Virus record (IMG/VR): IMGVR_UViG_3300033068_001989
Span: 128,001 to 192,000 of that record
DNA: 64,000 bases
DNA from: a virus
Taxonomy: Duplodnaviria; Caudoviricetes
Direction: 5' to 3' (one strand)
The notes beneath the pieces are model-generated. The model was not told the DNA's origin. It saw only the letters and a program-made list of their open reading frames with translations, and made no database searches. Below are positions 47,521-63,366 of the stretch, piece after piece. Numbering within the stretch: position 1 is the stretch's first letter; every line of letters begins with the position of its first letter. The position numbers and the translations under genes are program-made.

Positions 47521-47618
47521 AATTATTTAAAAATCCAACCGGACGTTTCTGTACGCCCCATTCTCCGATTACGATCGATTACGGTGGTCCCTGTTATATC
47601 AGGCCCAGTTGGATTTAG

Positions 47619-47690
47619 TTGCGGGAGGAGGATTCGAACCTCCGACCTTTGGGTTATGAGCCCAACGAGCTGCCTCTGCTCTATCCCGCT
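47619..47690 (-). tRNA. tRNA-fMet(CAT)
   Basis: GGG/CCC anticodon stem, 1-72 mismatch. Confidence 0.88.
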
Positions 47691-47838
47691 ATTTATATTT
47701 TCTGTGTGGCGCCCAAGGGAGGCTTATAAAGTTGTATAAGCCACTCCTCAAACAAAGACATAGTTCTGGTTACCCTTGATATGCTTAGCACGGACTTCTA
47801 CCGGCATTTCCTTAATTTTACAATTAAAGCGATATTCT

Positions 47839-47915
47839 TGGCGGTTCCAGGGGGATTCGAACCCCCGACCTCCGCCGTGACAGGGCGGCGTTGTAACCAA
47901 CTCTACTATGAAACC
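47839..47915 (-). tRNA. tRNA-Asp(GTC), CCA encoded
   Basis: Cloverleaf, CCGCC-CTGTCAC-GGCGG. Confidence 0.92.
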
Positions 47916-47918
47916 GTT

Positions 47919-48046
47919 TAAATAAGGGAATACTAAAGAAAGTATTTAATTTTCCGACTGGACTCGAACCAGCTACCCATTGTGAGTGAAACAATTGATC
48001 TAACCAAATGATCTACGAAGTAACTCTCTTAATTACCACTTATTTA
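47919..48046 (-). ncRNA. Y-RNA-like tRNA chimera (module on acceptor stem, loop TTCACTC)
   Basis: AAGTGGTAA..GAGTTACTTCG-[D, anticodon and T arms]-..GTATTCCCTT. Confidence 0.75.
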
Positions 48047-48130
48047 TACTTTAGCCGATATGCTTCATTGCAATTTAATTTCATGCTAATTTGAAACTTG
48101 CAGGGATTTCTCCACTCTCTCGGTTCTTTG

Positions 48131-48200
48131 TAGCGTAACGTGGACTCGAACCACCCCCCAAGCTTATGAGACTTAGATGCAACCTTTACACCTTAACGCA
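48131..48200 (-). tRNA. tRNA(CAT), Met or Ile2, divergent
   Basis: CTCATAA loop, GTGG-TTCGAGT-CCAC; imperfect acceptor stem. Confidence 0.6.
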
Positions 48201-48204
48201 ATAT

Positions 48205-48852
48205 TTATTGTTTTTTGATCCTTCCAAATTCCCATCCTTTTGACAAATGTTCATTTAGATCTATTTCTTTTATCTTCTTATCTGTCTGTCCATCATTGAT
48301 CCATCTTGTGCCAAATTGAGAGTTTTTTTCTCCTTTTTGGTTCAATGAATTCTTAAGACCCACTGATAATTTTGCCTCTTCCGTATGAGATCTTCCTGAG
48401 AAGGTGTCATACTTATATTTGCCATCTCTGTGATTTTTTTTAGCCAATTCAGAGAGATGCTTTCTTAAATTTTCTTTAAAATCAGAATCGTTGTTTACTT
48501 TTATCGAAAATGCTCTAGCACCAGATTCTGTAAATTTCTTAAGATGCTCTATACCACTAATACCTCCGCCTCCACCTGGCTGTAAATTCATACACATTGG
48601 ATCGTTTAAAAGATCCTCGTTAACTAATTCGATTTCTCTCTTTCTTAAAGATTCTCGATCTTCAAAATATTCAAGAATTTCCTTAGTGTGTGCTTCCTTA
48701 CCGTGCTTTCTTATCGATTCTCTTATTCTTCTACCACTTCCCATGTAACCATCATCTAAGTTATGCGTAGAGTGAATCCCTATGTAATATTTACCATTTT
48801 TTGTATTTGTTATTTTATACGAATAATGATATTTATATTTTTTTCTAGCCAT
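48205..48852 (-). mobile_element. Free-standing GIY-YIG homing endonuclease (Seg-like, NUMOD3)
   Basis: YSYKITN..YYIG.H..YMGSG, HTEE motif; inserted in the tRNA array. Confidence 0.85.
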
Positions 48853-48906
48853 CTCTATACCCTATTTTTATCTATATATCAAAAATAGGGTACGAAATCG
48901 CGGGCG

Positions 48907-48978
48907 TAGCCCGTAGGGGAATCGAACCCCTCTTACCAGGATGAAAACCTGGCGTCCTAACCGATAGACGAACGGGCC
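48907..48978 (-). tRNA. tRNA-Glu(TTC)
   Basis: Cloverleaf, CCAGG-TTTTCAT-CCTGG. Confidence 0.92.
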
Positions 48979-48983
48979 AAATT

Positions 48984-49129
48984 TAGGAAATAATGATGGA
49001 GTACCCGATATCGCTCCAATCTTTACTGCTTAATAATAGTTTTACAGTGCACCGGCAGAGGGTGTGTGAATCCTATAGAGCTGAAGGTGGCGTCGACACC
49101 TTGTCTTCAGCGGAAACCATTATTTCCTA
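48984..49129 (-). ncRNA. Unknown structured RNA
   Basis: 12-bp closing stem TAGGAAATAATG/CATTATTTCCTA with internal hairpins. Confidence 0.45.
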
Positions 49130-49777
49130 TTTTTTATTTCTTCCTAGTAACCATCCATCATTCAGATATTCGTTAAGGTCGCATCCCTTAATCTTTTTAT
49201 CCTCCTGATTTTTATTTACCCATCTTGTACCAAATTGTGAATTTTTATTACCAATTCTATTTATAGAATTTTTTTCACCTATTATTTTTTTGGTATCTTC
49301 TGTATGTTTTTTATCTTTGAAAGTTGGAGATCTCTCTGAATATGCTCCGTCCTTCCATGCTTTTTTAATCGTCTCGGAGGTCAACTTTTTAAAATGGAGT
49401 CTAAAATCCGCATCATTTTTTAACTTCTCTGAAAATCCCCTTCCCCCCGAGGAGCTGCATTTTTTCATATGCTTCTCGTTTATAAACCCTCCACCACCAC
49501 CGGGCTGTAGATTCATGCACATTGGATCATTTAATAAATCCTCATTAACTAATTCAATTTCTCTTTTTCGTAGGGATTCTCTGTCTTCGAAATATTCCAA
49601 AATTTCCTTGGTGTGTGAATCCTTTCCATGTCTTCTTATTGAATTTGTAATCCTTTTACCACTTCCAAAATAATCATCATCAAGATTATCTGTAGAATGC
49701 ATACCTATATAATATTTACCATCCTTTTTGTTGGTTATCTTATAGATATAGTGAAACCTCTTTTCTTTTCTTGCCAT
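49127..49777 (-). mobile_element. Free-standing GIY-YIG homing endonuclease (Seg-like, NUMOD3)
   Basis: YIYKITN..YYIGMH..YFGSG, HTEDTK; paralog of 48205..48852. Confidence 0.85.
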
Positions 49778-49831
49778 TTCTATACTTTAATTTAGATTAT
49801 GTATCTAAACTAAAGTACGAAATCGCGGCTG

Positions 49832-49905
49832 TGGTCCCTGTAGGGCTTGAACCTACGACCCCCTGATTATGAGTCAGGTGCTCTAACCAACTGAGCTAAG
49901 AGACC
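49832..49905 (-). tRNA. tRNA(CAT), probably Ile2 (reads ATA after lysidine modification)
   Basis: Cloverleaf, CCTGA-CTCATAA-TCAGG; Ile2 identity inferred from GGTCTCT acceptor and presence of separate fMet and Met genes. Confidence 0.75.
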
Positions 49906-49914
49906 GTTAATAAA

Positions 49915-50135
49915 AAAAGAAATATCCAAACCAATTTCACATCCCTTTACTCTTTGGTTTACCAGTCTTGCGGACTGTGCTGGTCATCTTCCGTTCTTTT
50001 CTCAAAATCTTTAGGTGTTCTTACTATCTCTATCAGATCACTGGGATTTTTGTTGAATTGAGTTTATTATGATCGGTCTATTGCGTCAGGGTATGGCAAC
50101 CAATAGACTTGTACCTCTCCAAAAATATTTCTTTT
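49915..50135 (-). ncRNA. Unknown ~220-nt structured RNA
   Basis: Closing stem AAAAGAAATAT/ATATTTCTTTT; internal hairpins; lies just after a promoter and boxA-like element. Confidence 0.45.
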
Positions 50136-50180
50136 AATTCTTTATGTTAATGAACGTTGTTTCTTTGTTTATTATTGTAT

Positions 50181-50214
50181 TGCAAAAGTATGATATTCTT
50201 TCGGGATAAAAAAA
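50181..50214 (-). promoter_or_regulatory. Early promoter inside array B
   Basis: TTTTTTTATCCCGAAAGAATATCATACTTTTGCA. Confidence 0.7.
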
Positions 50215-50267
50215 TTATTTTTGATATTTTTTTGAATTTTTTCAAAAATAATTTTTTATCACCTTTG

Positions 50268-50341
50268 CCGAGATAACGGGAATCGAACCCGTTTCGCACG
50301 CCGTGACAGGGCGGCATCCTTCGCCAGTGGACCTTACCTCG
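50268..50341 (-). tRNA. tRNA-Asp(GTC)
   Basis: CTGTCAC loop, ACGGG-TTCGATT-CCCGT. Confidence 0.8.
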
Positions 50342-50350
50342 AATATTTTG

Positions 50351-50440
50351 CGGAGGGTGAGGGGCTCGAACCCTCGCGACCTATCACTAGATCCTACCTG
50401 TTTAGCAAACAGGCCTCTTCACCAACTTGAGTAACCCTCC
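50351..50440 (-). tRNA. tRNA-Ser(GCT)
   Basis: Cloverleaf with long variable arm, G73. Confidence 0.92.
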
Positions 50441-50494
50441 GAATACAAGCCCAGAAAATTGCGCATGCTAGCAGAGGCGTTCTGGGAATTGTTG

Positions 50495-50581
50495 TACCCC
50501 GAGCCGGAGTCGAACCGGCACGCTCCTTTCGGAACACCAGATTTTAAGTCTGGGGCGTCTGACCATTTTCGCCATCGGGGC
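50495..50581 (-). tRNA. tRNA-Leu(TAA)
   Basis: CCAGA-CTTAAAA-TCTGG, long variable arm. Confidence 0.92.
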
Positions 50582-50588
50582 ATTAATT

Positions 50589-50680
50589 TGGTACAGATGG
50601 CGGGAATCGAACCCGCGTTTGATGCTATCTCAACAACCGCTACGAGTATAGAAGATATAAGCTTCCATCGGTACATCTGC
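50589..50680 (-). ncRNA. tRNA-like RNA without a D stem, CCA encoded
   Basis: GCAGATG/CATCTGT-ACCA, GCGGG-TTCGATT-CCCGC; irregular long hairpin in place of D and anticodon arms. Confidence 0.6.
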
Positions 50681-50688
50681 TAATTTTG

Positions 50689-50763
50689 GGTGACTGGTGG
50701 GGTTTGAACCCACGACCTCCTGAACCACAATCAGGCGTTCTAACCAGCTGAACTACAGCCACC
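50689..50763 (-). tRNA. tRNA-His(GTG)
   Basis: Cloverleaf with G-1 and C73. Confidence 0.92.
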
Positions 50764-50818
50764 ATGTTACGATCTATAAGGCCAGATCGTCAGCCAGTGC
50801 CTTCTCCCTAGGGAGATG

Positions 50819-51097
50819 CTATTTATTATCTCTATTTTTACCTAGATGATATCCGTCACAGAATATACATTTATAAACACTGAAATATTTACCATGTTTC
50901 CTTTGCATTGAATCTGCTGCCTTTCTTGCTGATTCCTTTGTTGGAAATCCCTGTTTTTCCTTTCCGTCCATTCTATAATGGCTTCTTTTATCAAATAATC
51001 CTAATGCATTACCTGTTATAAAGAAATTACGAAATGCTCTTTTTAAGGGAAGCTGATCCTTCAAACCAAGAATCAAATTCTTTAATTTAATTGGCAT
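50819..51097 (-). CDS. Hypothetical basic protein (CxxC..H)
   Basis: YKCIFCDGYHLG. Confidence 0.65.
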   Translation of the reverse strand: MPIKLKNLILGLKDQLPLKRAFRNFFITGNALGLFDKRSHYRMDGKEKQGFPTKESARKAADSMQRKHGKYFSVYKCIFCDGYHLGKNRDNK

Positions 51098-51533
51098 TTT
51101 CTTTTGTTTTATTAAATTCGTCCGCGGTTACTTTTTTTATCGGTGTAAATAAAGCGAACCCATCGTCGTCTTCGAAGTGATTGCATTTATCGATGAAATA
51201 GTTTCCCATCTTAAATCTCCAATATTCAAAAACGTTCATAGTTTCATTCCATCTTCCGATTTTACCTCTTCTATGATCACCTAGATAGAAAGCACCATCT
51301 TCGAGTTCATTCTTAGGTATTGCACCAGCTTTAATGAGTCTTGGTATATAGTATTCTTTATACTCCTTCTCGTTAACTTTTGGTATTTCTGGTACGTCTT
51401 GCGGAATTTTAAAAGTCTTAAGATTATCCCATCTTTTTCTTCTAAGCTCCTCAAAATTCTTTTTATCAATTTCCCTTTTTTCCTCAAGGAACTTTTTGAT
51501 CTGTTCGATTTTTTGTTTTTTGTCTGGTTCCAT
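51087..51533 (-). CDS. Hypothetical protein
   Basis: ORF within the tRNA array. Confidence 0.65.
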   Translation of the reverse strand: MEPDKKQKIEQIKKFLEEKREIDKKNFEELRRKRWDNLKTFKIPQDVPEIPKVNEKEYKEYYIPRLIKAGAIPKNELEDGAFYLGDHRRGKIGRWNETMNVFEYWRFKMGNYFIDKCNHFEDDDGFALFTPIKKVTADEFNKTKENAN

Positions 51534-51551
51534 GACTATGTTTTTAATTAG

Positions 51552-51634
51552 AGGTACCTGTCAGATTCGAACTGACGTGAGATTTCTCTAGCGGTTTTGC
51601 AGACCGCTCCTTTCAACCACTCAGGCAAGGTACC
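51552..51634 (-). tRNA. tRNA-Cys(GCA) with long variable arm
   Basis: GCGGT-CTGCAAA-ACCGC, U73, variable arm TAGAGAAATCTCAC. Confidence 0.85.
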
Positions 51635-51642
51635 GTGTTTAG

Positions 51643-51715
51643 AGCCTAAGACAGGGGTCGAACCTGCGACCTGCTGATTACAAATCAGCTGCTCTACCAA
51701 CTGAGCTACTTAGGC
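51643..51715 (-). tRNA. tRNA-Thr(TGT)
   Basis: Cloverleaf. Confidence 0.93.
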
Positions 51716-51723
51716 ATTTTTTG

Positions 51724-51809
51724 AGGAGACCAAGGGGATCGAACCCTATGCAGTTGCCCGCACCCGATGCTTTCCAGGCATGGACTATCACCGTTTAGTA
51801 TTGATCTCC
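51724..51809 (-). tRNA. tRNA-Ser(GGA), divergent
   Basis: ATGC-CTGGAAA-GCAT, long variable arm. Confidence 0.75.
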
Positions 51810-51923
51810 ATTGAGGGTTGACATATAGAATCTTTCCTATTTTCTGCGGTATAGGTACCATCATGGATTCCGTTGACCGATTCGTCTTTATAACCCCATA
51901 CGGAACAAGCAGGGTAACCTAAG

Positions 51924-52011
51924 CGGAGGGAGTGGGATTCGAACCCACGGGAGTAATTAGCTCACACAAGATTTCAAGTCTAGGCGCTTTTGACCACTTG
52001 CGCACCCCTCC
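51924..52011 (-). tRNA. tRNA-Ser(TGA)
   Basis: CTTGAAA loop, long variable arm, G73. Confidence 0.9.
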
Positions 52012-52042
52012 AATTTACTTTTACAATATTTCAATGAACAAT

Positions 52043-52075
52043 AAAAAAGGTCTCCTTTTTAGAGGAGACCTTTTT
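52043..52075 (-). terminator. Attenuator terminator upstream of tRNA array B
   Basis: GGTCTCCT-ctaaaa-AGGAGACC followed by T tract. Confidence 0.85.
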
Positions 52076-52097
52076 GATATTATTATATGTCTTAATA

Positions 52098-52190
52098 TCA
52101 ATACTCTCTCCTCATTACAATAGACGATTCACAAGTTGAACTCGTGTGATCTAAATGTAATGTATCTAATATGTACTGTATTTGTGACAT
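52098..52190 (-). CDS. Leader peptide B, 30 aa (MSQIQYILDTLHLDHTSSTCESSIVMRREY)
   Basis: Manual translation; A-rich initiation context; contains antiterminator GAGGAGA; codons match array B. Confidence 0.75.
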   Translation of the reverse strand: MSQIQYILDTLHLDHTSSTCESSIVMRREY

Positions 52191-52201
52191 GATTTTTATT
52201 T

Positions 52202-52272
52202 TTATAGATTTATATATCTAATTGATTTTAATATTTTATGCAAATTTAATGAAATGTTTCGAATAAAAAAAA
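52202..52272 (-). promoter_or_regulatory. Tandem early (TAAATTTG) and late-type (GATATATA) promoter block, copy B
   Basis: 52202-52248 is identical to 63034-63080. Confidence 0.8.
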
Positions 52273-52297: not shown

Positions 52298-52573
52298 TTA
52301 TTGAATTTCGTTTAATTGCTTAGGTATAAATTCACCAGTTTCTGTGATGTCTGCATATCTAGAAACAATATCACTCAATCCTCTTAGTAATTCCTCGAGG
52401 TTTTTTTCTTTTTCTGTTGGTCCATTTGTTGAACTGAAATTAGGTACAGCAATTTTTTGTTTAACTAATCTATCAAGATCAGATTTCAATTCATCAGCTA
52501 CGGATTTTTCATCACCGTAGAATTTTTCGTTAATTTCCGATTTATCAGAATCGTAATGTTTAAGATATCTCAT
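52298..52573 (-). CDS. Hypothetical, probable virion protein
   Basis: YLKHY..INE N-terminal motif. Confidence 0.55.
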   Translation of the reverse strand: MRYLKHYDSDKSEINEKFYGDEKSVADELKSDLDRLVKQKIAVPNFSSTNGPTEKEKNLEELLRGLSDIVSRYADITETGEFIPKQLNEIQ

Positions 52574-52578
52574 CCTTT

Positions 52579-54069: not shown

Positions 54070-54112
54070 TTTATAGATTTTTTTCTTTTATATATCCAAA
54101 TTACAAACAACA

Positions 54113-54140
54113 AAAAAGCCATTCTATATGAATGGCTTTT
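54113..54140 (-). terminator. Intrinsic terminator after Ro60
   Basis: AAAGCCATTC/GAATGGCTTT followed by T tract. Confidence 0.75.
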
Positions 54141-54160
54141 ATAATTTATGCAAAATATTA

Positions 54161-55741
54161 TTAGATAACAATAGCTTCGATTTCTCTTAAAATCGCTTTT
54201 GGATCGATCTCAGCTTTTTTGATCATCTCGTAGATATCAGCAGAGTAACCAAAAAGTTGAACTAATTTGTTACCTGGTTTGAACATGGTTGTACCATATC
54301 CTTGAATATCAACAGTGTAGATGAAAGGTTCGCCATGTGCAGATTTGTAGGATTGGAAAGAACTGTTTGTAACGATTCTATCACCACCTTGTAAATCTGA
54401 TATGATGAAGATACGATCATATTTACCGCTTTTTTGTAAAGTTGAGAAGATTGAGCCGAAGTCAGTACCATGACCAACTCTACCTTGCAAACTTAAACAT
54501 GTATTTTTGATCGTATTGATGCTATCGCCAGGATTGTATCTGATACCTTCTGTTGTTGTCGCAAATTGGTATAAATCTGCACCGATACCTTTTGCTAACG
54601 TTGCTCCAATAAGAGCAGCTTTATCAATACAATGTTTGTTTATAGCTTTACCATTCATGGTAACTCCATGTCCCATTCCGTGCATAGATCCAGATGTATC
54701 AATAACAACCGCTGTTCTGCCATGTGAGAATAATTCGAGCAAGTTTGGTATTGCTAATTCGTAAGCTCTATTCAAAGCAGTAACGAATGGTCTAGACGCA
54801 GAAGCACTAGTTTCTTGTAAAAGAATCTCCAAAGCAATATCTATTTGGTGAGGAAAGACCAAAGATTTTCTGATCAATTTCTCATCGATTAAAAGCTCAC
54901 ACGCACCACTAACTAATTCAGAATTTGAACTTGTGTTGATGATGTTTCTTAAATTACGAAGCAATGCCAAGTAACCAATTTTTCTAGTTTTAATCAATTC
55001 AGCATAGTTGCTTTCTTTAGCTTGTGTCAATTCAACCTCTGCTTGGGCTTTAGTGATTTCACCGGATTTAACTTTTGCAGCAACTTCCTGTCCTGATTTT
55101 GTGTTTTTGTCCTCGACAGTGTTGAATTGTTTTAACTTACCAGTCATAAGTTCTTTGAAAACCCCCTCCATTTGTGGTGTTGTTGGTTTTGGACGAACCA
55201 AGTTAACAACATCAACAAGTGAAACTGCTTTCCCTTTACCTTGATATTTAGCTAATTCGTATGCATCTGCTGATTCTAAAGCTGCTTTAAAGCCTTTCTT
55301 CATTGAGTTAGGTAATGGTTTACCAGGATTGAAGTGTTGGTAAGCTGCGATAATCTCCAATACGTCATCTAAACGGTATATAATACCACCAGTTTTAGCA
55401 TTCTTATCTCTTTTTGAGAAGAATCTTCTACCTATAGCTGATCCGGATAAATGTTTAACTAATGATACAGATCCGAAATGTGTTACTGATCTTTGACCAA
55501 CAACAGTTCTCGCGTATACAAGAGCTTTAGCAACGAATTCGATATCTTTCTTGGACAATTCGTCGATAAGTTGAACAAATCTGTTCTCTCTATCTGATAA
55601 TTTTTCATAGTATGAATTATCCAATCCTGTGGTAAGAATAGCAATTAATTCTAATTTTGGATCATACTTCACACCGGTACCACCTTGATGGTTTGTAACT
55701 GTCTCAACAGTTCTTTTTACTTTTTGATTGTAACGTGACAT
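54161..55741 (-). CDS. Ro60/TROVE RNA-binding protein
   Basis: YELAKY, ALLRNLRN, FPHQI TROVE motifs; C-terminal vWA MIDAS DTSGSM..GTD..ISD. Confidence 0.9.
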   Translation of the reverse strand: MSRYNQKVKRTVETVTNHQGGTGVKYDPKLELIAILTTGLDNSYYEKLSDRENRFVQLIDELSKKDIEFVAKALVYARTVVGQRSVTHFGSVSLVKHLSGSAIGRRFFSKRDKNAKTGGIIYRLDDVLEIIAAYQHFNPGKPLPNSMKKGFKAALESADAYELAKYQGKGKAVSLVDVVNLVRPKPTTPQMEGVFKELMTGKLKQFNTVEDKNTKSGQEVAAKVKSGEITKAQAEVELTQAKESNYAELIKTRKIGYLALLRNLRNIINTSSNSELVSGACELLIDEKLIRKSLVFPHQIDIALEILLQETSASASRPFVTALNRAYELAIPNLLELFSHGRTAVVIDTSGSMHGMGHGVTMNGKAINKHCIDKAALIGATLAKGIGADLYQFATTTEGIRYNPGDSINTIKNTCLSLQGRVGHGTDFGSIFSTLQKSGKYDRIFIISDLQGGDRIVTNSSFQSYKSAHGEPFIYTVDIQGYGTTMFKPGNKLVQLFGYSADIYEMIKKAEIDPKAILREIEAIVI

Positions 55742-55770
55742 GATTATAATTGTTTATTCGTTTATATTAT

Positions 55771-55967
55771 AAAATTGAGTTATCGGAAAGATAAAGCATA
55801 TAGACTAGGTCAAATGCAAGATCAACGTCAAAGACCTTCTTCTATTGCAAAGACAATGACAAAAACTAAGTCTCTTTCGCTAGCCAATTATCTGCCTAGT
55901 GGTAAAGATTTCTCTTTCTCTATGGCTTTCAGTAACTTGTCTAGCTATTGAGTTCTATCTCAGTTTT
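55771..55967 (-). ncRNA. Candidate structured RNA with hexamer-periodic tract
   Basis: Closing stem AAAACTGAG/CTCAATTTT; GTTTTT-GTCATT-GTCTTT..GTCTTT-GACGTT-GATCTT-GCATTT. Confidence 0.4.
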
Positions 55968-56157
55968 ATTTATTTTTATAGAAGAAGCGGAGTGATGAGA
56001 GTTCCCGAAGGATCCTCTCTGATTGCTGTATATGATTAATAGTCATTTATCTTATAAGATAATGGCCAGGAGCCATTAATTAAAGGACTTTATCTCTCCG
56101 AATCAAAGCATCAGGGGAATCGGCTTTTGCTTACCCCTTCAGCACCTCAATTTATTT

Positions 56158-57081: not shown

Positions 57082-57125
57082 GATTTCTAATTTTTGTTTT
57101 TATATTTTACTTTAAATTTCTACAA

Positions 57126-57165
57126 TAAAAAAGGGATTAAGTCGCTTGGCGTCCTAATCCCTTTA
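57126..57165 (-). terminator. Terminator ending array A and the Y-like cluster
   Basis: AAAGGGATTA/TAATCCCTTT followed by T tract. Confidence 0.7.
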
Positions 57166-57173
57166 TAAAACTA

Positions 57174-57314
57174 ACAGAGAATGATGTAAGAAGTGTGAAC
57201 AATTTAATGTCTGATTTTCATTCAGATGACTTAACCACTTGTCTAAATTTCCAGTTTAGCGGAAACTATCGGAGTCGAACCGATGTGCGATGTAACTTCT
57301 ATACTTACTACTGT
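57174..57314 (-). ncRNA. Y-RNA-like circularly permuted tRNA (break in variable loop, anticodon GAA)
   Basis: Order is T arm, closed acceptor (AGTTTCC/GGAAATT), D arm, anticodon arm TCTGA-ATGAAAA-TCAGA, all inside the shared module. Confidence 0.78.
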
Positions 57315-57322
57315 CGTATGTT

Positions 57323-57482
57323 TTATAAGGGAATGATGTAAATAGCGTTTTTTCTAACGTGCTCTACCAACTGAGCTATTCCCCCCAAATTTTTAATTTG
57401 TTTAGTGGGGGAAGATGGATTCGAACCACCGACACCGTGCTTTCAATGCATACGAAGTAACTATTTTACTGACCACTTATAA
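57323..57482 (-). ncRNA. YrlA-like RNA (T-acceptor-D order, module on anticodon stem)
   Basis: GGTGG-TTCGAAT-CCATC, TTCCCCC/GGGGGAA closed by a linker, GCTC-AGTTGGTA-GAGC; module AAGTGGTCA..GTTACTTCG/CATTCCCTT. Confidence 0.8.
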
Positions 57483-57490
57483 TATGTTTT

Positions 57491-57625
57491 TTGTAAGGGA
57501 ATGTTCGGGTGAGTTTCAATGGATGTTTTTGCTGGAGTTGAACCAGCTACCTAAAGTTTAAGAGACTCTCGCTCTACCAAGTGAGCTAAAAAACGAAGTA
57601 ACTCATATTCCGTTACCACTTACAA
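57491..57625 (-). ncRNA. Y-RNA-like tRNA chimera (module on acceptor stem, anticodon CTT)
   Basis: D, anticodon (AGAGT-CTCTTAA-ACTTT) and T arms enclosed by the module. Confidence 0.78.
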
Positions 57626-57711
57626 TAATACTTTTTCAATGAACGTTTTGTGATTTTTATATGGAGGGAAATCCTCTTTGTTTCATAAAAATCAATATTT
57701 TTTTAAAATTT

Positions 57712-57877
57712 AACGATCTTAGAGATATTGGGAAGGGAATGTTTAGAAAGGGATGCTAATAGTTTTTGCGGGAGTTGAACCCGCGACCTTAAATACCAAA
57801 AATTTACGCCCTACCAACTGGGCTAAAAAACGAAGTAACCTTTCAATTTACCACTAACCAATATTTCTAAGAACGTT
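57712..57877 (-). ncRNA. Y-RNA-like tRNA chimera (module on acceptor stem, anticodon TTG)
   Basis: D, anticodon (TAAAT-TTTTGGT-ATTTA) and T arms enclosed by the module plus a long basal stem. Confidence 0.78.
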
Positions 57878-57881
57878 TTTG

Positions 57882-57955
57882 TAGGCAAGGAGAGACTCGA
57901 ACTCTCGACCTTCGCGGTATCAGCGCGACGCTCTAACCAACTGAGCTACCTGCCT
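57882..57955 (-). tRNA. tRNA-Ile(GAT)
   Basis: Cloverleaf. Confidence 0.92.
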
Positions 57956-57966
57956 ATTTTATTTCG

Positions 57967-58037
57967 AGATCCCGGAGGGATTCGAACCCCCGTCTTCAGA
58001 TCCGTATTCTGAAATTCTTCCGCTGAACTACGGGACC
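57967..58037 (-). tRNA. tRNA-Arg(ACG)
   Basis: TCAGA-ATACGGA-TCTGA. Confidence 0.85.
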
Positions 58038-58041
58038 TTAT

Positions 58042-58209
58042 TTAATTCTCTGCGCCTCCATCTACAAGTAGCAATAAATGTGTTTATCCTTTCGCTGAAT
58101 CGCCCTATAGACTCAGTTGCAGCTAATCAGCACTTAGATACCGCCTTCCTTTCTCACGGATTAAGGTTACACTTTGGAAATTCACCTCTACGGACACACA
58201 GAGAACTAA
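58042..58209 (-). ncRNA. Unknown ~165-nt structured RNA
   Basis: Closing stem TTAGTTCTCTGTGT/GCGCAGAGAATTAA. Confidence 0.45.
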
Positions 58210-58212
58210 TTC

Positions 58213-58386
58213 TTATAATCTGTTTCGAAGAATCTCTATCTCCTTGTTAAGTCTTTTGATATCAGAATCGCTCAAATCGACTTTTTTATCTCTTGTACCT
58301 TTTTCGGTTTTAACGCCGCTTTTCAATTGTTCCTCCAACATAGACAATGCTCTTGCTTGTCTAGATCTTCTTTGGGTTGTTGCCAT
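58213..58386 (-). CDS. Small early protein, 57 aa (MATTQRRSRQ...ILRNRL)
   Basis: Manual translation; directly downstream of the promoter at 58410; below the ORF-track cutoff. Confidence 0.65.
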   Translation of the reverse strand: MATTQRRSRQARALSMLEEQLKSGVKTEKGTRDKKVDLSDSDIKRLNKEIEILRNRL

Positions 58387-58409
58387 TTTTGTATGTTTAA
58401 TTATTATGA

Positions 58410-58443
58410 TGCAAATATATGATATCCTTTCGAGATAAAAAAA
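58410..58443 (-). promoter_or_regulatory. Early promoter
   Basis: TTTTTTTATCTCGAAAGGATATCATATATTTGCA. Confidence 0.72.
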
Positions 58444-58905
58444 TTAATTTGCAATTTTTTCAATAATAATTTCCTTAACCTTAACTGGACTCGCCATACC
58501 TGGAAACTTTTTATTAAAAGCACCGATAACTTTACCTGTTAAAACCTGTGCATTTAATCCAAGACCATCCATTTCTGAAAGTAGTTCCATAACAGCGGAT
58601 GTTATTTCTGAATCCTCCATTTGTTTAGGAAGATAAGATTCAATCGGTTTCAACTCAGCTGTTTCTTGTTCTACAAGATCCATTCTTCCGGCCTTTGTGA
58701 ATTCCTCTACTGATTGTTTTCTTTGTTTGATTGTGCTTATAACAATCTTTAAAACATCAGCATCACTAAGCTCTGTTCCAGCTGGACCAGCTTTCTCAGC
58801 TTCTAGTATTTTGGACTTCAGACCACTTAAAGCACTTTTTGCTACTGTGTCTTTTGATTTGAATGCTGTAATATAATCAGCATTGATTTTCTCCTTTAGT
58901 GTCAT
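58444..58905 (-). CDS. GatB/YqeY domain protein (start at MTLKEK)
   Basis: LKEKINAD..AFKSKD..KQRKQS.E.F.KAGR.DL..E..E....YLPKQM. Confidence 0.85.
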   Translation of the reverse strand: MTLKEKINADYITAFKSKDTVAKSALSGLKSKILEAEKAGPAGTELSDADVLKIVISTIKQRKQSVEEFTKAGRMDLVEQETAELKPIESYLPKQMEDSEITSAVMELLSEMDGLGLNAQVLTGKVIGAFNKKFPGMASPVKVKEIIIEKIAN

Positions 58906-58920
58906 GTTTTCAATTTTTAG

Positions 58921-58989
58921 TGGAATATTGGGACTCGAACCCTGCCTCCCACTGTTTAGTGGTTGCACATCCGCTTGTGCTTTTATCCC
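58921..58989 (-). pseudogene. Degenerate tRNA-like element
   Basis: GGGATA/TATTCC acceptor, GCAC/GTGC D stem, TTCGAGT loop; anticodon loop not 7 nt. Confidence 0.5.
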
Positions 58990-59053
58990 GTGGCCGGGGT
59001 TTATGGATATTTCTTAATCACCTCCAATGGGCCGACCCTTGGTGACAAATTAT

Positions 59054-59443
59054 TTAGATTGCTCCTTCTCCGCCACTTATGAAATATAGGACTGATCTAA
59101 TATTTCTCTGTTCGTTACCTAGAGCTTCTATCTTAATTCTTTTCTCCTGTACGGATCTCTGTGTTTTAGCAAGATCTGTCTTAGCAACAATCAATTCATA
59201 ATTGTCTGCAGTTTTTTCAACAAAAGCAGCATCTCTTGCCTCTGCATTACTGTAAGCCTTTTTACCAGCACCGTCTACAGTAGCACCTATCTCAGCTTTA
59301 ATTACAGATTCAATCTGCGTAATCTTCTCTGATTGAGATTGAGATGTTTCTGTTAATGTTAATAGCTCCAACTGGGCTTCAACAATCTTTGCCGGAATCT
59401 CCAATAATCTATTAGCTAATGATTCCAATCTTTCCTTGTCCAT
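59054..59443 (-). CDS. Hypothetical coiled-coil protein
   Basis: GKKAYSNAEARDA motif, helical. Confidence 0.7.
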   Translation of the reverse strand: MDKERLESLANRLLEIPAKIVEAQLELLTLTETSQSQSEKITQIESVIKAEIGATVDGAGKKAYSNAEARDAAFVEKTADNYELIVAKTDLAKTQRSVQEKRIKIEALGNEQRNIRSVLYFISGGEGAI

Positions 59444-59464
59444 TTCGAAATGTTTAAAAATTAG

Positions 59465-59554
59465 TGATCAGAACAGGAATCGAACCTGTGCTCTGCCGAA
59501 GATACCCCGATTTCTCGGATCGACGACCAAATACTCCCACTATATCATCTGATC
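59465..59554 (-). ncRNA. tRNA-like RNA with extended anticodon arm ending in a GAAA tetraloop
   Basis: GATCAGA/TCTGATC-A, D stem, ACAGG-TTCGATT-CCTGT. Confidence 0.6.
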
Positions 59555-59649
59555 AATTTCATTTGAAGCTCACAAAAGACCCAACTTTAAGCTCAAAAAT
59601 GCTCGAAATTGAGCTTCATTTTGAGTTTTTGTGAGCTTCATTTCCTATT

Positions 59650-59842
59650 GAGATCCAATTCAGACTTTAGACCGCTACTAACACCCTTATTCCATACCCT
59701 CGGGATCTGATGTGAAGGAATCGAACCTTCCTAGAGCCGTCGCTCCATACTCAGAATAACATCTATTCCCTACTCTTTGGTGATGACTTTCGTCTGTTCA
59801 TCTTATTCCTCCTTTTTTATTCTTTCGAACTAATTGGATCTC
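59650..59842 (-). ncRNA. Unknown ~190-nt RNA containing an isolated T arm
   Basis: 11-bp closing stem GAGATCCAATT/AATTGGATCTC; GAAGG-TTCGATT-CCTTC. Confidence 0.5.
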
Positions 59843-59845
59843 TTG

Positions 59846-59920
59846 TGATTCCTGTAGGATTCGAACCTACGACCCTCTCGGTGTAAACGAGATGCTCTGA
59901 ACCAACTGAGCTAAGGAACC
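59846..59920 (-). tRNA. tRNA-Val(TAC)
   Basis: Cloverleaf. Confidence 0.93.
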
Positions 59921-59942
59921 AGTTGCTGATATTTATATCAGG

Positions 59943-60536
59943 CTATTTTATTTTCTTATTTTTTGGAGCTTCCACTTTGGATGAGAATATCTCTTTTACA
60001 CTTCCGTCATGATAGAATATTCTAGCATCAGGATAGGTACATCCATATTGATCAGCCATTACCTGTGCATAATCTTCTATGGTATTAAGCTTAATTAATC
60101 CTTCGATTATTTTTGATCCGTATTTTTCTCCTATCTCTGGGATTTTGATCCATTCCATGTCAGAGTATCTTTCAAGTAATACCTTCAATTCATCTTCAGC
60201 ACTTAAACCATATCCACTAATCCATCTTTCAACCGGATATCTACCATCTTTTTCTTGAGTCATTGAAGTTATATCTATGGAATGAGATCCATACCAACGA
60301 TCACCACAACATTCACAATCCATGCCCTCATCAACACCATTCCAATAGCATCCGAGATCTTCAGCGATAGAATCTGCTTCAGCTGAGCTCCTTGCTTCTA
60401 TGAATAATCTGTGACATAATTTATCATCTGTCACAAAAGAACCTCCTGAGTTGTTTTGTGAGATTTCATAAAATTTTAAGCTACCGTCTTCTTTTCTTTT
60501 CATTTTTATGTTTTTAGAAATAGATCCATCCTGCAC
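59943..60536 (-). CDS. Hypothetical phage protein (QNNSGGSF..DCECCGDRW)
   Basis: Cys motif typical of phage hypothetical proteins; start probably MKRKED. Confidence 0.7.
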   Translation of the reverse strand: MQDGSISKNIKMKRKEDGSLKFYEISQNNSGGSFVTDDKLCHRLFIEARSSAEADSIAEDLGCYWNGVDEGMDCECCGDRWYGSHSIDITSMTQEKDGRYPVERWISGYGLSAEDELKVLLERYSDMEWIKIPEIGEKYGSKIIEGLIKLNTIEDYAQVMADQYGCTYPDARIFYHDGSVKEIFSSKVEAPKNKKIK

Positions 60537-60744
60537 ATCTCTTTGGATATTTTGATGAGAAATCTATGAAATCTGGATCCTCACCTCTGATGAATTTATG
60601 AATTGATACATTTTCTTTTGTCCTGTTTGCTTTATTAAATTGTCTAACAAAATCACTGGGAACGTTGCACCAGTAGTTATATCTACCCGGTGTGTGTCTT
60701 CTTCTTTGTGCTTCGGTCCAAGACCATCTCTTTTTTGTTTTCAT
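60514..60744 (-). CDS. Hypothetical small basic protein
   Basis: ORF in array orientation. Confidence 0.55.
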   Translation of the reverse strand: MKTKKRWSWTEAQRRRHTPGRYNYWCNVPSDFVRQFNKANRTKENVSIHKFIRGEDPDFIDFSSKYPKRCAGWIYF

Positions 60745-60804
60745 TTTGTATTAGGTTATTTTACCTAATACATGTCGAATTTCTTTTTCATATTTAATTA
60801 TTTG

Positions 60805-60877
60805 TGGAGCTGATGGGATTCGAACCCACATCCTCCTCCGTGCAAGGGAGGCGCTCAGCCAGTTGAGCTACAGCCCC
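60805..60877 (-). tRNA. tRNA-Ala(TGC)
   Basis: G3-U70 pair, cloverleaf. Confidence 0.93.
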
Positions 60878-60885
60878 AAATTTTG

Positions 60886-60959
60886 TAGCGAGAGTGGGTT
60901 TCGAACCCACGACCTCCGGGTTATGATTCCAGCGCTCTGACCATCTGAGCTATCTCGCC
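60886..60959 (-). tRNA. tRNA-Met(CAT), elongator
   Basis: GGCGAGA acceptor, ATCATAA loop. Confidence 0.85.
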
Positions 60960-60999
60960 AATTCATAGACCTTAATAGAACCTATGAAAACAATCATTT

Positions 61000-61233
61000 T
61001 TACTGGTGATGTTTGACATATCTGCCAAACCTATCAACTCTAACCTCCATCTTAGTGAGGTTAAAATTCCAGTTTTGAAAAACACCCAAGCCAGATCTTT
61101 GTCTTGCTTGTTTAATAGCAGATTGCTCTGCCTTTTCGCGACCTTCTTCCGTAGTCTCTACGAAAAAAGTGGGAGCCTGAACACCAGTCTTACTGGTAGG
61201 AACTACTCTCCAAATTCTCAAATTTTGAGTCAT
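61000..61233 (-). CDS. Hypothetical protein flanked by a 14-bp inverted repeat
   Basis: 77-aa ORF. Confidence 0.6.
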   Translation of the reverse strand: MTQNLRIWRVVPTSKTGVQAPTFFVETTEEGREKAEQSAIKQARQRSGLGVFQNWNFNLTKMEVRVDRFGRYVKHHQ

Positions 61234-61305
61234 AATATTTAGCTAATAGCTAAAACTATGTTGAGTCGATGATTGTTTTCATGTTCTTAATTTATTTTAA
61301 TTTTG

Positions 61306-61378
61306 AGCAGAAGACGGGACTCGAACCCGCAACAACCTGCTTGGAAGGCAGGAGCTCTACCAATTGAGCTACTTCTGC
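61306..61378 (-). tRNA. tRNA-Gly(TCC)
   Basis: Cloverleaf. Confidence 0.93.
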
Positions 61379-61422
61379 ATGGAGCCGGCACGATGATTCA
61401 ATCGTGGATCTTCCGGAATGTG

Positions 61423-61495
61423 AGCGATAGACCGGGGTCGAACCGGCGACCTTTGCCTTGGCAAGGCAACGCTCTACCAACTGAGCTACTATCGC
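61423..61495 (-). tRNA. tRNA-Gly(GCC)
   Basis: Cloverleaf. Confidence 0.93.
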
Positions 61496-61586
61496 ATGAT
61501 CGGGTAGCGTCGAACTAAGTTTAATGTTAGTCCTATACCCGCTGGTTACATTTCCACGAAGGAAAGAGGCTTTACCAGGCACCCTG

Positions 61587-61658
61587 AGGGCAGAGTGGGA
61601 TTCGAACCCACGACCAGTTGATTAACAGTCAACTGCTCTACCGCTGAGCTATCCACCC
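61587..61658 (-). tRNA. tRNA-Asn(GTT)
   Basis: GTTGA-CTGTTAA-TCAAC; acceptor and discriminator (U73) atypical for Asn. Confidence 0.85.
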
Positions 61659-61713
61659 TTTTTAATCTTAGTTATTGCTAATGGATAAGTTTCCTTATAC
61701 TATTGGATATTTG

Positions 61714-61786
61714 TGGGACCGGGCGGGATCGAACCGCCATCATCGGATTTTCAGTCCGCTGCATAGACCAACTTTGCTACAGTCCC
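61714..61786 (-). tRNA. tRNA-Phe(GAA)
   Basis: CGGA-CTGAAAA-TCCG. Confidence 0.88.
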
Positions 61787-61799
61787 TTTTTTATTTTTG

Positions 61800-61873
61800 C
61801 TCTTCTGACTGGATTCGAACCAGCAACCCCAGGTTTAACAAACCTTCGCTCTGACCGTTGGAGCTACAGAAGA
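61800..61873 (-). tRNA. tRNA-Asn(GTT)
   Basis: U1-A72, G73, TTGTTAA loop. Confidence 0.88.
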
Positions 61874-61879
61874 ATGTTG

Positions 61880-61990
61880 TGGAGTAGCTGGAATTGAACC
61901 ACGCTATCTGGGATAAGTACTAATAGTCTTACTCTTGCTATCTAGAATCTGAAGCAGACCCTATCAGACATTTCCCAGCCCTTTTACTCC
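61880..61990 (-). ncRNA. tRNA-like RNA without a D arm and with a large central insert
   Basis: GGAGTA/TACTCC-A, TTCAATT T loop, CTGGGA/TCCCAG enclosing ~60 nt. Confidence 0.55.
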
Positions 61991-61995
61991 GTTTG

Positions 61996-62077
61996 TGCCA
62001 GCAGAGGGACTCGAACCCCCGAACCCTTAAGGGAACAGATTTACAGTCTGCAGTAATTGCCGCTATACGATACTGGC
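61996..62077 (-). tRNA. tRNA-Tyr(GTA)
   Basis: Cloverleaf with variable arm. Confidence 0.9.
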
Positions 62078-62082
62078 TTTTG

Positions 62083-62156
62083 TGACCCCGATGGGACTCG
62101 AACCCATGACTCCCTCATTAAAAGTGAGGTGCTCTAGCCAGCTGAGCTACGAGGTC
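62083..62156 (-). tRNA. tRNA-Lys(TTT)
   Basis: Cloverleaf. Confidence 0.93.
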
Positions 62157-62267
62157 ATTATAATAAAGTTGTTTTTGTTTAATAAACCTGCCTGGTTTAT
62201 TATGATTTTTCAACTTTAGTGTATTGATTTAGTTTCCGTTATGCCAAAGATCATATTTTTTTAACAT

Positions 62268-62301
62268 TGCAAATATATGAAATGCTTTCGAATTAAAAAA
62301 A
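62268..62301 (-). promoter_or_regulatory. Early promoter inside array A
   Basis: TTTTTTTAATTCGAAAGCATTTCATATATTTGCA. Confidence 0.72.
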
Positions 62302-62330
62302 TATTTTTTTAATTATTTTTTTAATTTTTG

Positions 62331-62401
62331 TTGGGATACCAGGATTCGAACCTGGAATAACTGGACCAAAACCAGTTGTGTTACCGTTACACCATATCCC
62401 A
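62331..62401 (-). tRNA. tRNA-Gln(TTG)
   Basis: Cloverleaf, U1-A72. Confidence 0.92.
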
Positions 62402-62410
62402 TTAAATTTG

Positions 62411-62481
62411 CACGGACTGGAGGATTCGAACCTTCATCGTCGGTTTTGGAGACCGGTATGCTACCATTGCACCAAGCCCGT
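62411..62481 (-). tRNA. tRNA-Trp(CCA)
   Basis: CTCCAAA loop, G73. Confidence 0.9.
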
Positions 62482-62485
62482 GTGT

Positions 62486-62713
62486 TTATCTGGTTGCTTT
62501 ATGAAACTCGTTATTATCTAAAGCCTTCCTGATGTACCTCATAAAGAAGATGGCATTATCTTCTGCTAACAATGTTGCTTCTCCTATATCATTCAATCTA
62601 ACAGGAAATGTGTGATCCGAACCATCAACGAAAACGTTGTAATAAGCGATGTCATTCTTTAGATGTGAAAATCTAACTTTGTTGTCTTTTACGATTTCTT
62701 TTATTGTTGCCAT
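62486..62713 (-). CDS. Hypothetical phage protein
   Basis: FPV..DIGEATLLAE..AIFFMRYIRK. Confidence 0.7.
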   Translation of the reverse strand: MATIKEIVKDNKVRFSHLKNDIAYYNVFVDGSDHTFPVRLNDIGEATLLAEDNAIFFMRYIRKALDNNEFHKATR

Positions 62714-62729
62714 TTTGTTTATTTATTTG

Positions 62730-62805
62730 TCGGGATACAGAGACTCGAACTCTGATGATGTCCTGCTCCCAAAGCAGGCGACTTAGCCAATTAGTCCACA
62801 TCCCG
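62730..62805 (-). tRNA. tRNA-Pro(TGG)
   Basis: C1-G72, A73, TTTGGGA loop. Confidence 0.92.
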
Positions 62806-62824
62806 TTAATTTTAATTTCAGTCC

Positions 62825-62863
62825 AAAAAAAAACTCCAGATCTTTTAAGATCTGGAGTAAAAA
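62825..62863 (-). terminator. Attenuator terminator upstream of tRNA array A
   Basis: ACTCCAGATCT-taaa-AGATCTGGAGT followed by long T tract. Confidence 0.88.
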
Positions 62864-62893
62864 TATTTAATGCTTATTTGACTAGTTCTTACA

Positions 62894-63022
62894 TTAAATT
62901 ATATCGTGACCTCCAGATCCCTTGCTGTACCCATTATACCATTTGGCAATGCCCACCTGATTAAAGGGTGCAACGCTCTGCGGCATAAACGGTTTTACAT
63001 TATTTCGGAAAGTTGTTTTCAT
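62894..63022 (-). CDS. Leader peptide A, 42 aa (MKTTFRNNVKPFMPQSVAPFNQVGIAKWYNGYSKGSGGHDII)
   Basis: Manual translation; A-rich initiation context; contains antiterminator GATCTGGAG; codons match array A. Confidence 0.78.
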   Translation of the reverse strand: MKTTFRNNVKPFMPQSVAPFNQVGIAKWYNGYSKGSGGHDII

Positions 63023-63033
63023 TGTTTTTTAAA

Positions 63034-63103
63034 TTATAGATTTATATATCTAATTGATTTTAATATTTTATGCAAATTTATGGAAAAGTTTCGAATAAAA
63101 AAA
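63034..63103 (-). promoter_or_regulatory. Tandem early and late-type promoter block, copy A
   Basis: 63034-63080 is identical to 52202-52248. Confidence 0.8.
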
Positions 63104-63120
63104 ATTATTTTTGATTTTTT

Positions 63121-63366
63121 TTAAATATTTTTAATTATTTCATCTAAACCAATCTCTTTTACTGAGTCGAAATCGGAAGCATCATATGGTGTATCCTCCA
63201 GAATATAATATTTTTCCATGAAATATGGTCCTGATCCGTATCCTATTGCAAGTGCCTTCATTTCCTTTCCCCCGTATGCTACCAAAACAGTTCTTAGCGA
63301 CGTGTTAGTATTTTTATTCATTACTTCCTCTAGCAAAGTAGAATTAAATTCCTGTATATGTTTCAT
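63121..63366 (-). CDS. Hypothetical, probable virion protein
   Basis: MKHIQEFNSTLLE N-terminal motif. Confidence 0.55.
   Translation of the reverse strand: MKHIQEFNSTLLEEVMNKNTNTSLRTVLVAYGGKEMKALAIGYGSGPYFMEKYYILEDTPYDASDFDSVKEIGLDEIIKNI

Follow-up and report, generated by a model that had tools for sequence, protein, structure and literature searches.

The 64,000-nt stretch analysed here (the window; bases 128001–192000 of the 207,751-bp IMG/VR virus record IMGVR_UViG_3300033068_001989, estimated completeness 73%) comes from a tailed phage and carries two large arrays of tRNA genes, A and B. Each array is preceded on the minus strand by a promoter block, a short open reading frame (ORF), an RNA element and an intrinsic terminator. 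The ORF in front of array A, leader A, is written almost entirely in amino acids for which array A encodes tRNAs, up to the point where it runs into an element complementary to the 5′ arm of the terminator. From the sequences of this leader and its relatives, we judge it probable that leader A acts as the sensing part of a transcription attenuator worked by the ribosome, one that would sense decoding by the array's own tRNAs. The ORF had been singled out in a preliminary description of the window, whose claims are taken up below.

Relatives of the cassette came from a scan for an exact pattern, two scans of viral contigs with profiles and a scan of metagenomes. The cassette is present in seven viral records (five IMG/VR phages, three of them complete at 373–434 kb, and two further contigs) and in 25 metagenome contigs, referred to below by labels such as G002 or L062 where they must be told apart.

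Leader A and its putative RNA switch

Cassette A runs on the minus strand in the order promoter block, leader A, element, spacer hairpin, terminator, tRNA-Pro and the rest of array A, and comprises the following features:

63071..63095, minus strand: host-type promoter-like element (TTCGAAAC, 9 nt, TAAATTTGCA), found by pattern scans
63034..63080, minus strand: 47-nt block of promoter (from the −7 box) and 5′ untranslated region, 100% identical to 52202..52248 before leader B
63042..63050, minus strand: GATATATAA phage-type promoter-like motif, 20 nt 5′ of the leader-A ATG
62894..63022, minus strand: leader A ORF, 42 codons plus a TAA stop
62927..63010, minus strand: putative regulatory core, codons 5–32, with array-A amino acids at 27/28
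62911..62921, minus strand: predicted antiterminator element (GG + GATCTGGAG), codons 34–38, pairing with the terminator 5′ arm
62865..62899, minus strand: predicted spacer hairpin of 8 bp (62899..62892/62872..62865), holding the stop codon and enclosed by the antiterminator helix
62825..62858, minus strand: intrinsic terminator A, an 11-bp stem (62858..62848/62843..62833) with a 4-nt loop and nine U (62833..62825)
57520..62805, minus strand: array A, from tRNA calls, with small ORFs interspersed

The array-A set of amino acids, defined by all tRNAs between 62805 and 57520, is P, W, Q, K, Y, N, F, G, M, A, V, R and I. Leader A matches this set at 35/42 residues, or at 34/42 at the codon level if the ATA at codon 41 is counted as unread by the GAT tRNA, the figure that the preliminary description had given. 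Its further statement that codons 5–32 encode array-A amino acids with a single Ser as exception holds, S16 being the sole mismatch, and half of the eight non-matching codons (S36, H39, D40 and I41) do lie in or after the element. In random 41-residue peptides drawn from this genome's amino-acid frequencies, a run of 27/28 has P = 2 × 10⁻⁴. Genome-wide, only one other of the 627 ATG-initiated ORFs of 25–60 amino acids equals the leader-A run; it is a low-complexity repeat frame, and leader A ranks second.

The element is, as had been noticed, an exact copy of the terminator 3′ arm: GATCTGGAG at 62919..62911 is identical to 62842..62834. The 9 Watson–Crick and 2 G–U pairs that it was said to form with the 5′ arm (62857..62849) are recovered with the two flanking G, plus 62848–62847. 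The predicted duplex between element and 5′ arm has an energy of −18.5 kcal/mol, compared with −7.8 ± 1.7 kcal/mol in dinucleotide shuffles, of which 0/300 were as good. The terminator itself has an energy of −15.1 kcal/mol and lies 20 nt upstream of tRNA-Pro; farther along this strand, the first terminator-like hairpin with a T-run to equal or surpass the leader terminators is 54140..54114, followed by that of leader B. The spacer hairpin, to which comparable hairpins correspond in most other lineages, contains the stop codon, and a terminating ribosome would therefore melt it as well.

Equilibrium folding of the full transcript with a ribosome mask gives the terminator the advantage at nearly every ribosome position, so the switch must be kinetic, as is the trp attenuator. 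For a kinetic version of the model, the transcript was cut just after the terminator 5′ arm and the ribosome mask was moved along the leader. In the cut transcript the 5′ arm pairs with the element at a probability of about 1 in 14/15 leaders while the A site is at or before codon 32 (A) or codons 22–24 (B), and the pairing is lost with the ribosome farther downstream. The composition bias ends at this same point, as the preliminary description had argued; in leader A, folding with the ribosome mask places the change from a free to a masked element at codon 32/33. With a ribosome stalled in mid-core, antiterminator and terminator are nearly iso-energetic here, and elsewhere the terminator is better by 8–12 kcal/mol, with path barriers of 9–14 kcal/mol in these other lineages. 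With no ribosome in the model, the 5′ arm again pairs with the element at a probability of about 1 in nearly all lineages. The antiterminator thus forms without a ribosome, so there is no trp-like protector, and an untranslated leader predicts readthrough, unlike in trp.

Comparison among relatives supports the terminator helix and, strongly in this clade and in cassette B but weakly in the G002 clade, the antiterminator helix. Across 17 sequences the terminator helix is 98.3% paired, with 4 two-sided pair changes and 0/500 shuffles as good. In 16/16 leaders it is the final codons of the ORF that form the best duplex with the 5′ arm, codons 33–38 of 40–42 in family A and 25–30 of 28–33 in family B. 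The 5′ arm differs between clades in A (CCAGATC, CCGGATC or CCGATTC) and the 3′ end of the leader changes with it; in B, arm and element are replaced together, TCTCCTC with GAGGAGA in some and TCCCTTAG with CTAAGGGA in others. When arms were swapped between leaders, own arms scored −256.7 versus −212.9 ± 11.2 for swapped arms in A, and −154.0 versus −117.9 ± 10.0 in B (P ≤ 2 × 10⁻⁵ in both families, ignoring phylogeny). Compensatory antiterminator pairs comprise a UA/CG pair in A and a UA-to-CG change in L068B, in which the terminator partner merely wobbles. Because L057 keeps the element in a reading frame other than that of G007, the constraint on the element acts on the RNA.

Two leaders matched to two tRNA sets

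A second cassette precedes array B and is built in the same way:

52043..52263, minus strand: cassette B, with the 47-nt promoter block, leader, element and terminator, followed by tRNA-Ser(TGA) and the remainder of array B as far as 47618
52190..52098, minus strand: leader B, 30 codons, unrelated to leader A
52113..52107, minus strand: element B, GAGGAGA, within leader B
52075..52044, minus strand: terminator B, with its U tract at 52048..52043
52011..47618, minus strand: array B, beginning with tRNA-Ser(TGA)

The array-B set is S, T, C, H, L, D, E, M and V. Leader B contains 16 consecutive residues of this set (random-peptide P = 4 × 10⁻⁵) and ranks first among the same 627 small ORFs. The two leaders are complementary in composition: leader A has 30 A-only and 7 B-only residues, and leader B has 9 A-only and 18 B-only residues (Fisher P = 2 × 10⁻⁴).

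All contigs that reach across both arrays divide their tRNAs between A and B in the same way. The composition of the leaders is conserved too. Among 23 distinct leader-A peptides, residues 2–31 fall in set A at 25–30 of 30 positions; seven versions reach 30/30 and one longer version 33/33, the clade of this genome being among the leakier at 27/30. Leader A has 19 variable columns, which often change non-conservatively (K/I/N, P/N/S, A/I/N/S/V), and 46/54 of the column states are in the set (P = 3 × 10⁻⁴). L, D, E, H and C are absent from the leader-A cores (0/693 residues), whereas in the tails, the 9–11 residues that follow the core and lie over the antiterminator, they make up 55/239 residues, equal to the 22.6% background. 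The claim that the match stops at the antiterminator therefore extends to the relatives, where the bias ends at the same place despite many non-conservative substitutions. Leader B is represented by 9 distinct peptides that are about 50% identical between clades; 8/9 keep unbroken set-B runs of 14–21 residues, and in the ninth, L062, the run is 8 residues long, or 16 if one interruption is allowed. A leader-B profile search returned no match in two fragment records although leaders are present there, as seen by reading upstream of the arrays; it missed them because the query was too short for the tool.

Leader A also behaves as a protein-coding sequence. Its core has between-clade ratios of nonsynonymous to synonymous substitution (dN/dS) of 0.09–0.53, with dS saturated, near or above 1, and for invariant P, Q, G, A and K residues the choice among synonymous codons varies. 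Because of the low dN/dS and this synonymous variation at invariant positions, we read the ORF as protein, and the substitution pattern indicates that it is under purifying selection. Across five diverse clades, 18 residues are invariant.

The match reaches the level of codons. Genome-wide, ATA accounts for 65% of Ile codons. In leader-A cores Ile is written as ATT 29 times, ATC 12 times and ATA once (41/42 ATT/ATC), at seven or more columns, and array A has Ile-GAT; in leader-B cores it is ATA in 10/10 cases and ATT/ATC in none, and array B has an Ile2-looking CAT tRNA. The remark in the preliminary description that the core Ile of leader A is the GAT-read ATT is thus correct, and Ile codon choice is matched to the array in all lineages. 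Leu behaves similarly. In B leaders TTA makes up 67% of Leu codons versus 32% genome-wide, and CTN Leu codons occur only in lineages with Leu-TAG in the B array. Where the B array lacks a Leu tRNA (G007, L055/57/58 and L071) the leader cores lack Leu, and where it has Leu tRNAs the cores hold 3–5 Leu; the Leu-less lineages may form one clade and so perhaps reflect a single event. It is this codon-level evidence, as read from the sequences, that separates matching to the tRNAs from mere peptide composition.

Both leaders also share their promoters. The 47-nt block occurs in exactly two copies genome-wide, one per leader, and the host-type promoter-like element is found upstream of leader B and of the leaders of all relatives as well. 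Such promoter-like elements terminate in TAAATTTG or TATATTTG; their −7 box, TAnnTTTG, we take to be of the Bacteroidota type, and the host presumably belongs to that phylum. The motif GATATATA(A) is strongly strand-biased, with 42 coding-strand versus 4 opposite-strand occurrences genome-wide. Of its coding-strand copies, 39/42 are no more than 80 nt away from the start of an ORF, most commonly 27–28 nt before it, and the motif is frequently found immediately 3′ of a terminator; the copies before the leaders are at 63050..63042 and 52218..52210 (minus strand). By its distribution, GATATATA(A) is probably a phage-specific promoter. In both leaders the GATATATAA motif stands in tandem with a host-type promoter, and there are plain promoters without GATATATAA, two of them inside array A:

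62268..62292, minus strand: internal plain promoter-like element before tRNA-Lys(TTT), leaderless
near 58443: second internal plain promoter of array A

The element at 62292..62268 is kept in the close relatives G001 and G003–G005 and is absent in G002, where array A showed no internal promoter anywhere downstream of the leader; the leader promoter therefore seems to drive the entire array there. It is a plausible idea that plain promoters serve one phase of infection, and the phage-type promoter with the attenuator another.

Predicted mechanism and rival readings

In the mechanism that we propose, transcripts would start at the tandem promoters, the host-type element and the GATATATAA motif, and a ribosome would translate the 42-codon leader as RNA polymerase advances to the terminator. 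The core (about codons 2–32) would ask for almost only array-A amino acids and, for Ile, for codons of the array's own anticodon. Were it decoded fast, the ribosome would stand over codons 33–42 when the terminator is made, masking 62921..62911 and melting the spacer hairpin, and the terminator would form and stop transcription before tRNA-Pro. A delay at any core codon, as when charged tRNA is scarce, or the absence of a ribosome would leave the element free; it would pair with the 5′ arm on its emergence, the terminator would come too late and polymerase would enter the array. More tRNA would then mean faster decoding and a gate that recloses, giving feedback on tRNA supply. Cassette B would operate in the same way for the complementary set of amino acids. 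Stalling, transcription–translation coupling in the host and regulated readthrough are what we infer from the sequences, and the purpose, as we infer it, would be timing or compensation for lost host tRNAs.

Several observations weigh against such a mechanism. Each amino acid occurs only one to four times in the leaders and dispersed, with no classical tandem runs, except in some B leaders, whose runs resemble the classical Thr/Ser kind. Of the amino acids outside set A, only Thr and Ser leak into the A core, and both belong to the array-B set. The preliminary description had pointed to the single Arg codon of leader A, and in this genome that codon is indeed CGA, which makes up 1% of its Arg codons and is read by Arg-ACG of array A; the choice is not general, since AGA stands there in nine other aligned leader-A sequences and its tRNA, Arg-TCT, belongs to a leaderless cluster. 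A stretch of ten residues, QVGIAKWYNG, is invariant or nearly so, which codon matching alone does not explain; the nascent peptide may contribute. In this clade the internal promoters at 62292..62268 and ~58443 would express most of array A, bypassing the attenuator. On the RNA side, an alignment-wide shuffle control for the family-A antiterminator helix was not significant, with one compensatory pair only, because most columns are invariant, and in the G002 clade the antiterminator is interrupted and does not rise above shuffles (fraction 0.11). At equilibrium the antiterminator of this genome reaches only 0.13–0.47, at codons 13–20; the estimated refolding barriers are only 2–14 kcal/mol overall; and the folding models yielded no robust protector or pause (1:2) hairpin, the 1:2-like pairing in the equilibrium fold being non-competing.

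The conserved decapeptide raises the prospect of an attenuator that senses arrest of the nascent peptide (QVGIAKWYNG and its flanks, in the manner of TnaC, SecM or Erm), or general translation capacity, with composition secondary. Like TnaC, SecM and ErmCL, the cassette has a short leader ORF, a conserved peptide and a ribosome whose position would decide the fate of the downstream transcript. The 18 invariant residues and the low dN/dS with varying synonymous sites indicate that the amino-acid sequence itself is selected, and since the no-ribosome state antiterminates in the model, any failure of translation would open the gate. In leader A the Trp lies 12–14 residues before the stop, a distance that may resemble the TnaC geometry, and the 10-residue motif is invariant; leader B has no conserved motif. 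We nevertheless regard this account as unlikely. Leader B is only about 50% identical between clades, and thus poorly conserved as a peptide, yet keeps its composition, and its Leu codons track the presence and type of the array's Leu tRNAs; the A core excludes L, D, E, H and C wholly while its variable positions change non-conservatively. A model at the peptide level does not predict the partition of ATT/ATC and ATA between A and B leaders. TnaC, SecM and ErmCL act through contacts of peptide and tunnel at one codon, often on Rho or on translation initiation, whereas here composition and codons mirror the downstream tRNAs.

Less likely again, in our estimation, is that the leaders are ordinary small protein genes followed by constitutive insulating terminators, with the arrays expressed from internal promoters or by leaky readthrough and the composition owed to the function of the peptide. 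The purifying selection on the ORF, the plain promoters inside array A of this clade, the leaderless upstream Arg/Leu cluster, the many terminator-then-promoter junctions in this genome and a terminator that always wins at equilibrium would all suit it. It leaves unexplained why two unrelated peptides have complementary sets equal to the tRNA sets downstream of them, why Ile and Leu match at the codon level, why the bias stops exactly at the element and why the 3′ end of the ORF tracks the terminator arm across clades, even in another frame; in G002, moreover, no internal promoter was seen from the leader to the end of array A. Chance resemblance we consider very improbable. With 13 of the 20 amino acids in set A, which spans 63% of residues genome-wide, a 63% match is expected, and the binomial P for the whole ORF is only 0.0035; but the run probabilities of 2 × 10⁻⁴ and 4 × 10⁻⁵ belong to the ORFs behind the only two places where the promoter block occurs, relatives retain the pattern in sharper form, and both the duplex z-score and the constant position of the duplex speak against coincidence.

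A sensor of decoding by the array's own tRNAs would have its closest precedents in the multivalent leader-peptide attenuators of enterobacterial amino-acid operons, such as ilvGMEDA (Ile/Leu/Val) and thr (Thr/Ile), alongside trpL, hisL, pheL and leuL. Like them, the phage cassettes have a short leader ORF, translated as judged from its sequence, between promoter and regulated genes, enrichment in the sensed codons, an intrinsic terminator before the first gene and more than one amino acid sensed, together with an alternative helix that uses the terminator 5′ arm and would be masked by a ribosome finishing the leader. Four structural features of leader-peptide attenuators are thus present, and a protector hairpin is not, no 1:2 hairpin having been found. 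Unlike those operons, the cassettes have a spacer hairpin with the stop codon inside the antiterminator, are phage-borne, stand in tandem with a phage-type promoter motif, show no sequence relation to them and sample 13 (A) or about 8 (B) amino acids with 1–4 dispersed codons each. They also precede tRNA genes and not biosynthetic enzymes, so the product fed back would be the decoder itself.

Two systems that regulate the translation apparatus offer further comparison. In the Escherichia coli pheST attenuator, which controls phenylalanyl-tRNA synthetase through the Phe-rich leader pheM, a component of that apparatus is likewise under leader-peptide attenuation that senses charged cognate tRNA; there the regulated gene is a bacterial synthetase and a single amino acid is sensed, whereas here tRNA genes, many amino acids and a virus are involved. 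T-box riboswitches of Gram-positive bacteria bind uncharged tRNA through a specifier codon and the T-box sequence, independently of translation. They resemble the cassettes in being terminator/antiterminator switches that report tRNA status and control decoding genes, but the sensor here is a translated-type ORF under purifying selection. An Rfam scan of 51900–63200 at E ≤ 1 gave no T-box match and no other known leader or riboswitch family. The sole match to an Rfam leader family was Phe_leader on cassette B (30.8 bits versus a gathering threshold of 55, E = 0.07), with none on cassette A; this sub-threshold match and one to STnc230 are merely terminator B. A full-text literature search, subscription-only papers excluded, turned up no phage or bacterium in which tRNA genes are described as controlled by a leader peptide.

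Genome context and implications

All long ORFs of the window lie on the minus strand, and a tail sheath and a large terminase are among the proteins that the genome encodes. Since relatives that carry direct terminal repeats span 373–434 kb, we regard the record as part of a giant phage genome. When the region was searched against a phage database, only tRNA-Pro look-alikes and no related annotated phage came back.

The genome has 34 tRNA genes in three clusters: array A, array B and a small cluster of Arg-TCT, Leu and Leu. The order in array A is Pro, Trp, Gln, Lys, Tyr, Asn, Phe, Asn, Gly, Gly, Met, Ala, Val, an odd tRNA, Arg(ACG), Ile(GAT), Gln and Lys(CTT). For the odd tRNA, at 59464..59554 (minus strand), ARAGORN reports an odd loop and the anticodon '???' (tc), and the Rfam tRNA score is 39.4 bits; it may be intron-bearing or non-standard. 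An additional sub-threshold tRNA-like match lies at 57196..57252. Three tRNAs, all on the minus strand, have a CAT anticodon. The one at 47618..47690, in array B, has the initiator features of a 1:72 mismatch and three G–C pairs and looks like an initiator; that at 49831..49905, also in array B, has the same D-arm as the Ile-GAT tRNA and looks Ile2-like; and that at 60885..60959, in array A, looks like an elongator Met tRNA. Typed in this way, the CAT tRNAs would be consistent with the use of ATA in leader B and with the Met that is conserved inside leader A. ARAGORN saw no suppressor tRNA in the window and lists possible ones in the arrays of relatives, with anticodon TTA in G005 (L022) and G007 (L047/L048) and TCA ('SeC') in L061 and L062.

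The third cluster and the ORF associated with it lie beyond the arrays:

just outside the window: Arg-TCT/Leu/Leu cluster, with a plain promoter upstream, leaderless
G000 193444..193230, beyond the window, and also in L053: small lipoprotein-like ORF (signal peptide; repeats of Thr/Val/Asp), with a terminator after it

No third leader was found before the Arg-TCT/Leu cluster in this genome and ten relatives, which have the plain promoter only. In some genomes the small lipoprotein-like ORF, unrelated to the leaders, lies before this cluster; the ORF and its terminator precede the plain promoter, and its composition mismatches the cluster.

Between terminator B and the first tRNA of array B is a conserved element (52040..52024, minus strand; TGTTCATTGAAAT here). 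In the relatives L024, L046, L047 and L068 it has the core TCTTTGACAT, with GCTCTTTGAAAT in L068. We take this element to resemble rrn boxA; if it is one, only transcripts that have passed the attenuator would gain antitermination.

Protein genes within the arrays (58444..58968, 59943..60536, 48205..48852 and 49127..49777, all minus strand) encode a YqeY-like protein, a DUF7296 protein and two SegE-type GIY-YIG endonucleases. A TROVE (Ro60-like) domain protein of 526 amino acids (54161..55741, minus strand) belongs to the same transcription unit as array A, and a sub-threshold match to the Y-RNA-like YrlA lies at 57355..57438 (minus strand; 31.8 versus 69 bits, E = 0.001). Together, the TROVE protein and the YrlA-like match may form a phage Ro/Y-RNA module adjoining the tRNAs.

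The cassettes bear on why phages carry large sets of tRNA genes and on how such sets are expressed. If the reading of leader A proposed here is true, it would be the first case known to us of tRNA genes under leader-peptide attenuation, and it would extend a textbook mechanism from the supply of amino acids to the supply of decoders. The 20 amino acids would be split over two leaders, and starvation for one set should open one gate only. The cassettes are compact (~270 nt) and self-contained, and could therefore be tested as synthetic reporters although the phage is uncultured. With somewhat less confidence than we place in the attenuator itself, we lean towards the broader view that giant phages hold their tRNA supply under translational feedback, each tRNA transcription unit being gated by a leader ORF that checks, codon by codon, the tRNAs encoded downstream. 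A tRNA set would then be raised only when ribosomes stumble on its codons, for instance after host tRNAs have been broken down or cut by anticodon nucleases, or where they suit the codon usage of the phage poorly. Such a phage would carry a built-in sensor of the tRNA pool during infection, with links to host defences that target tRNAs and to host shut-off.

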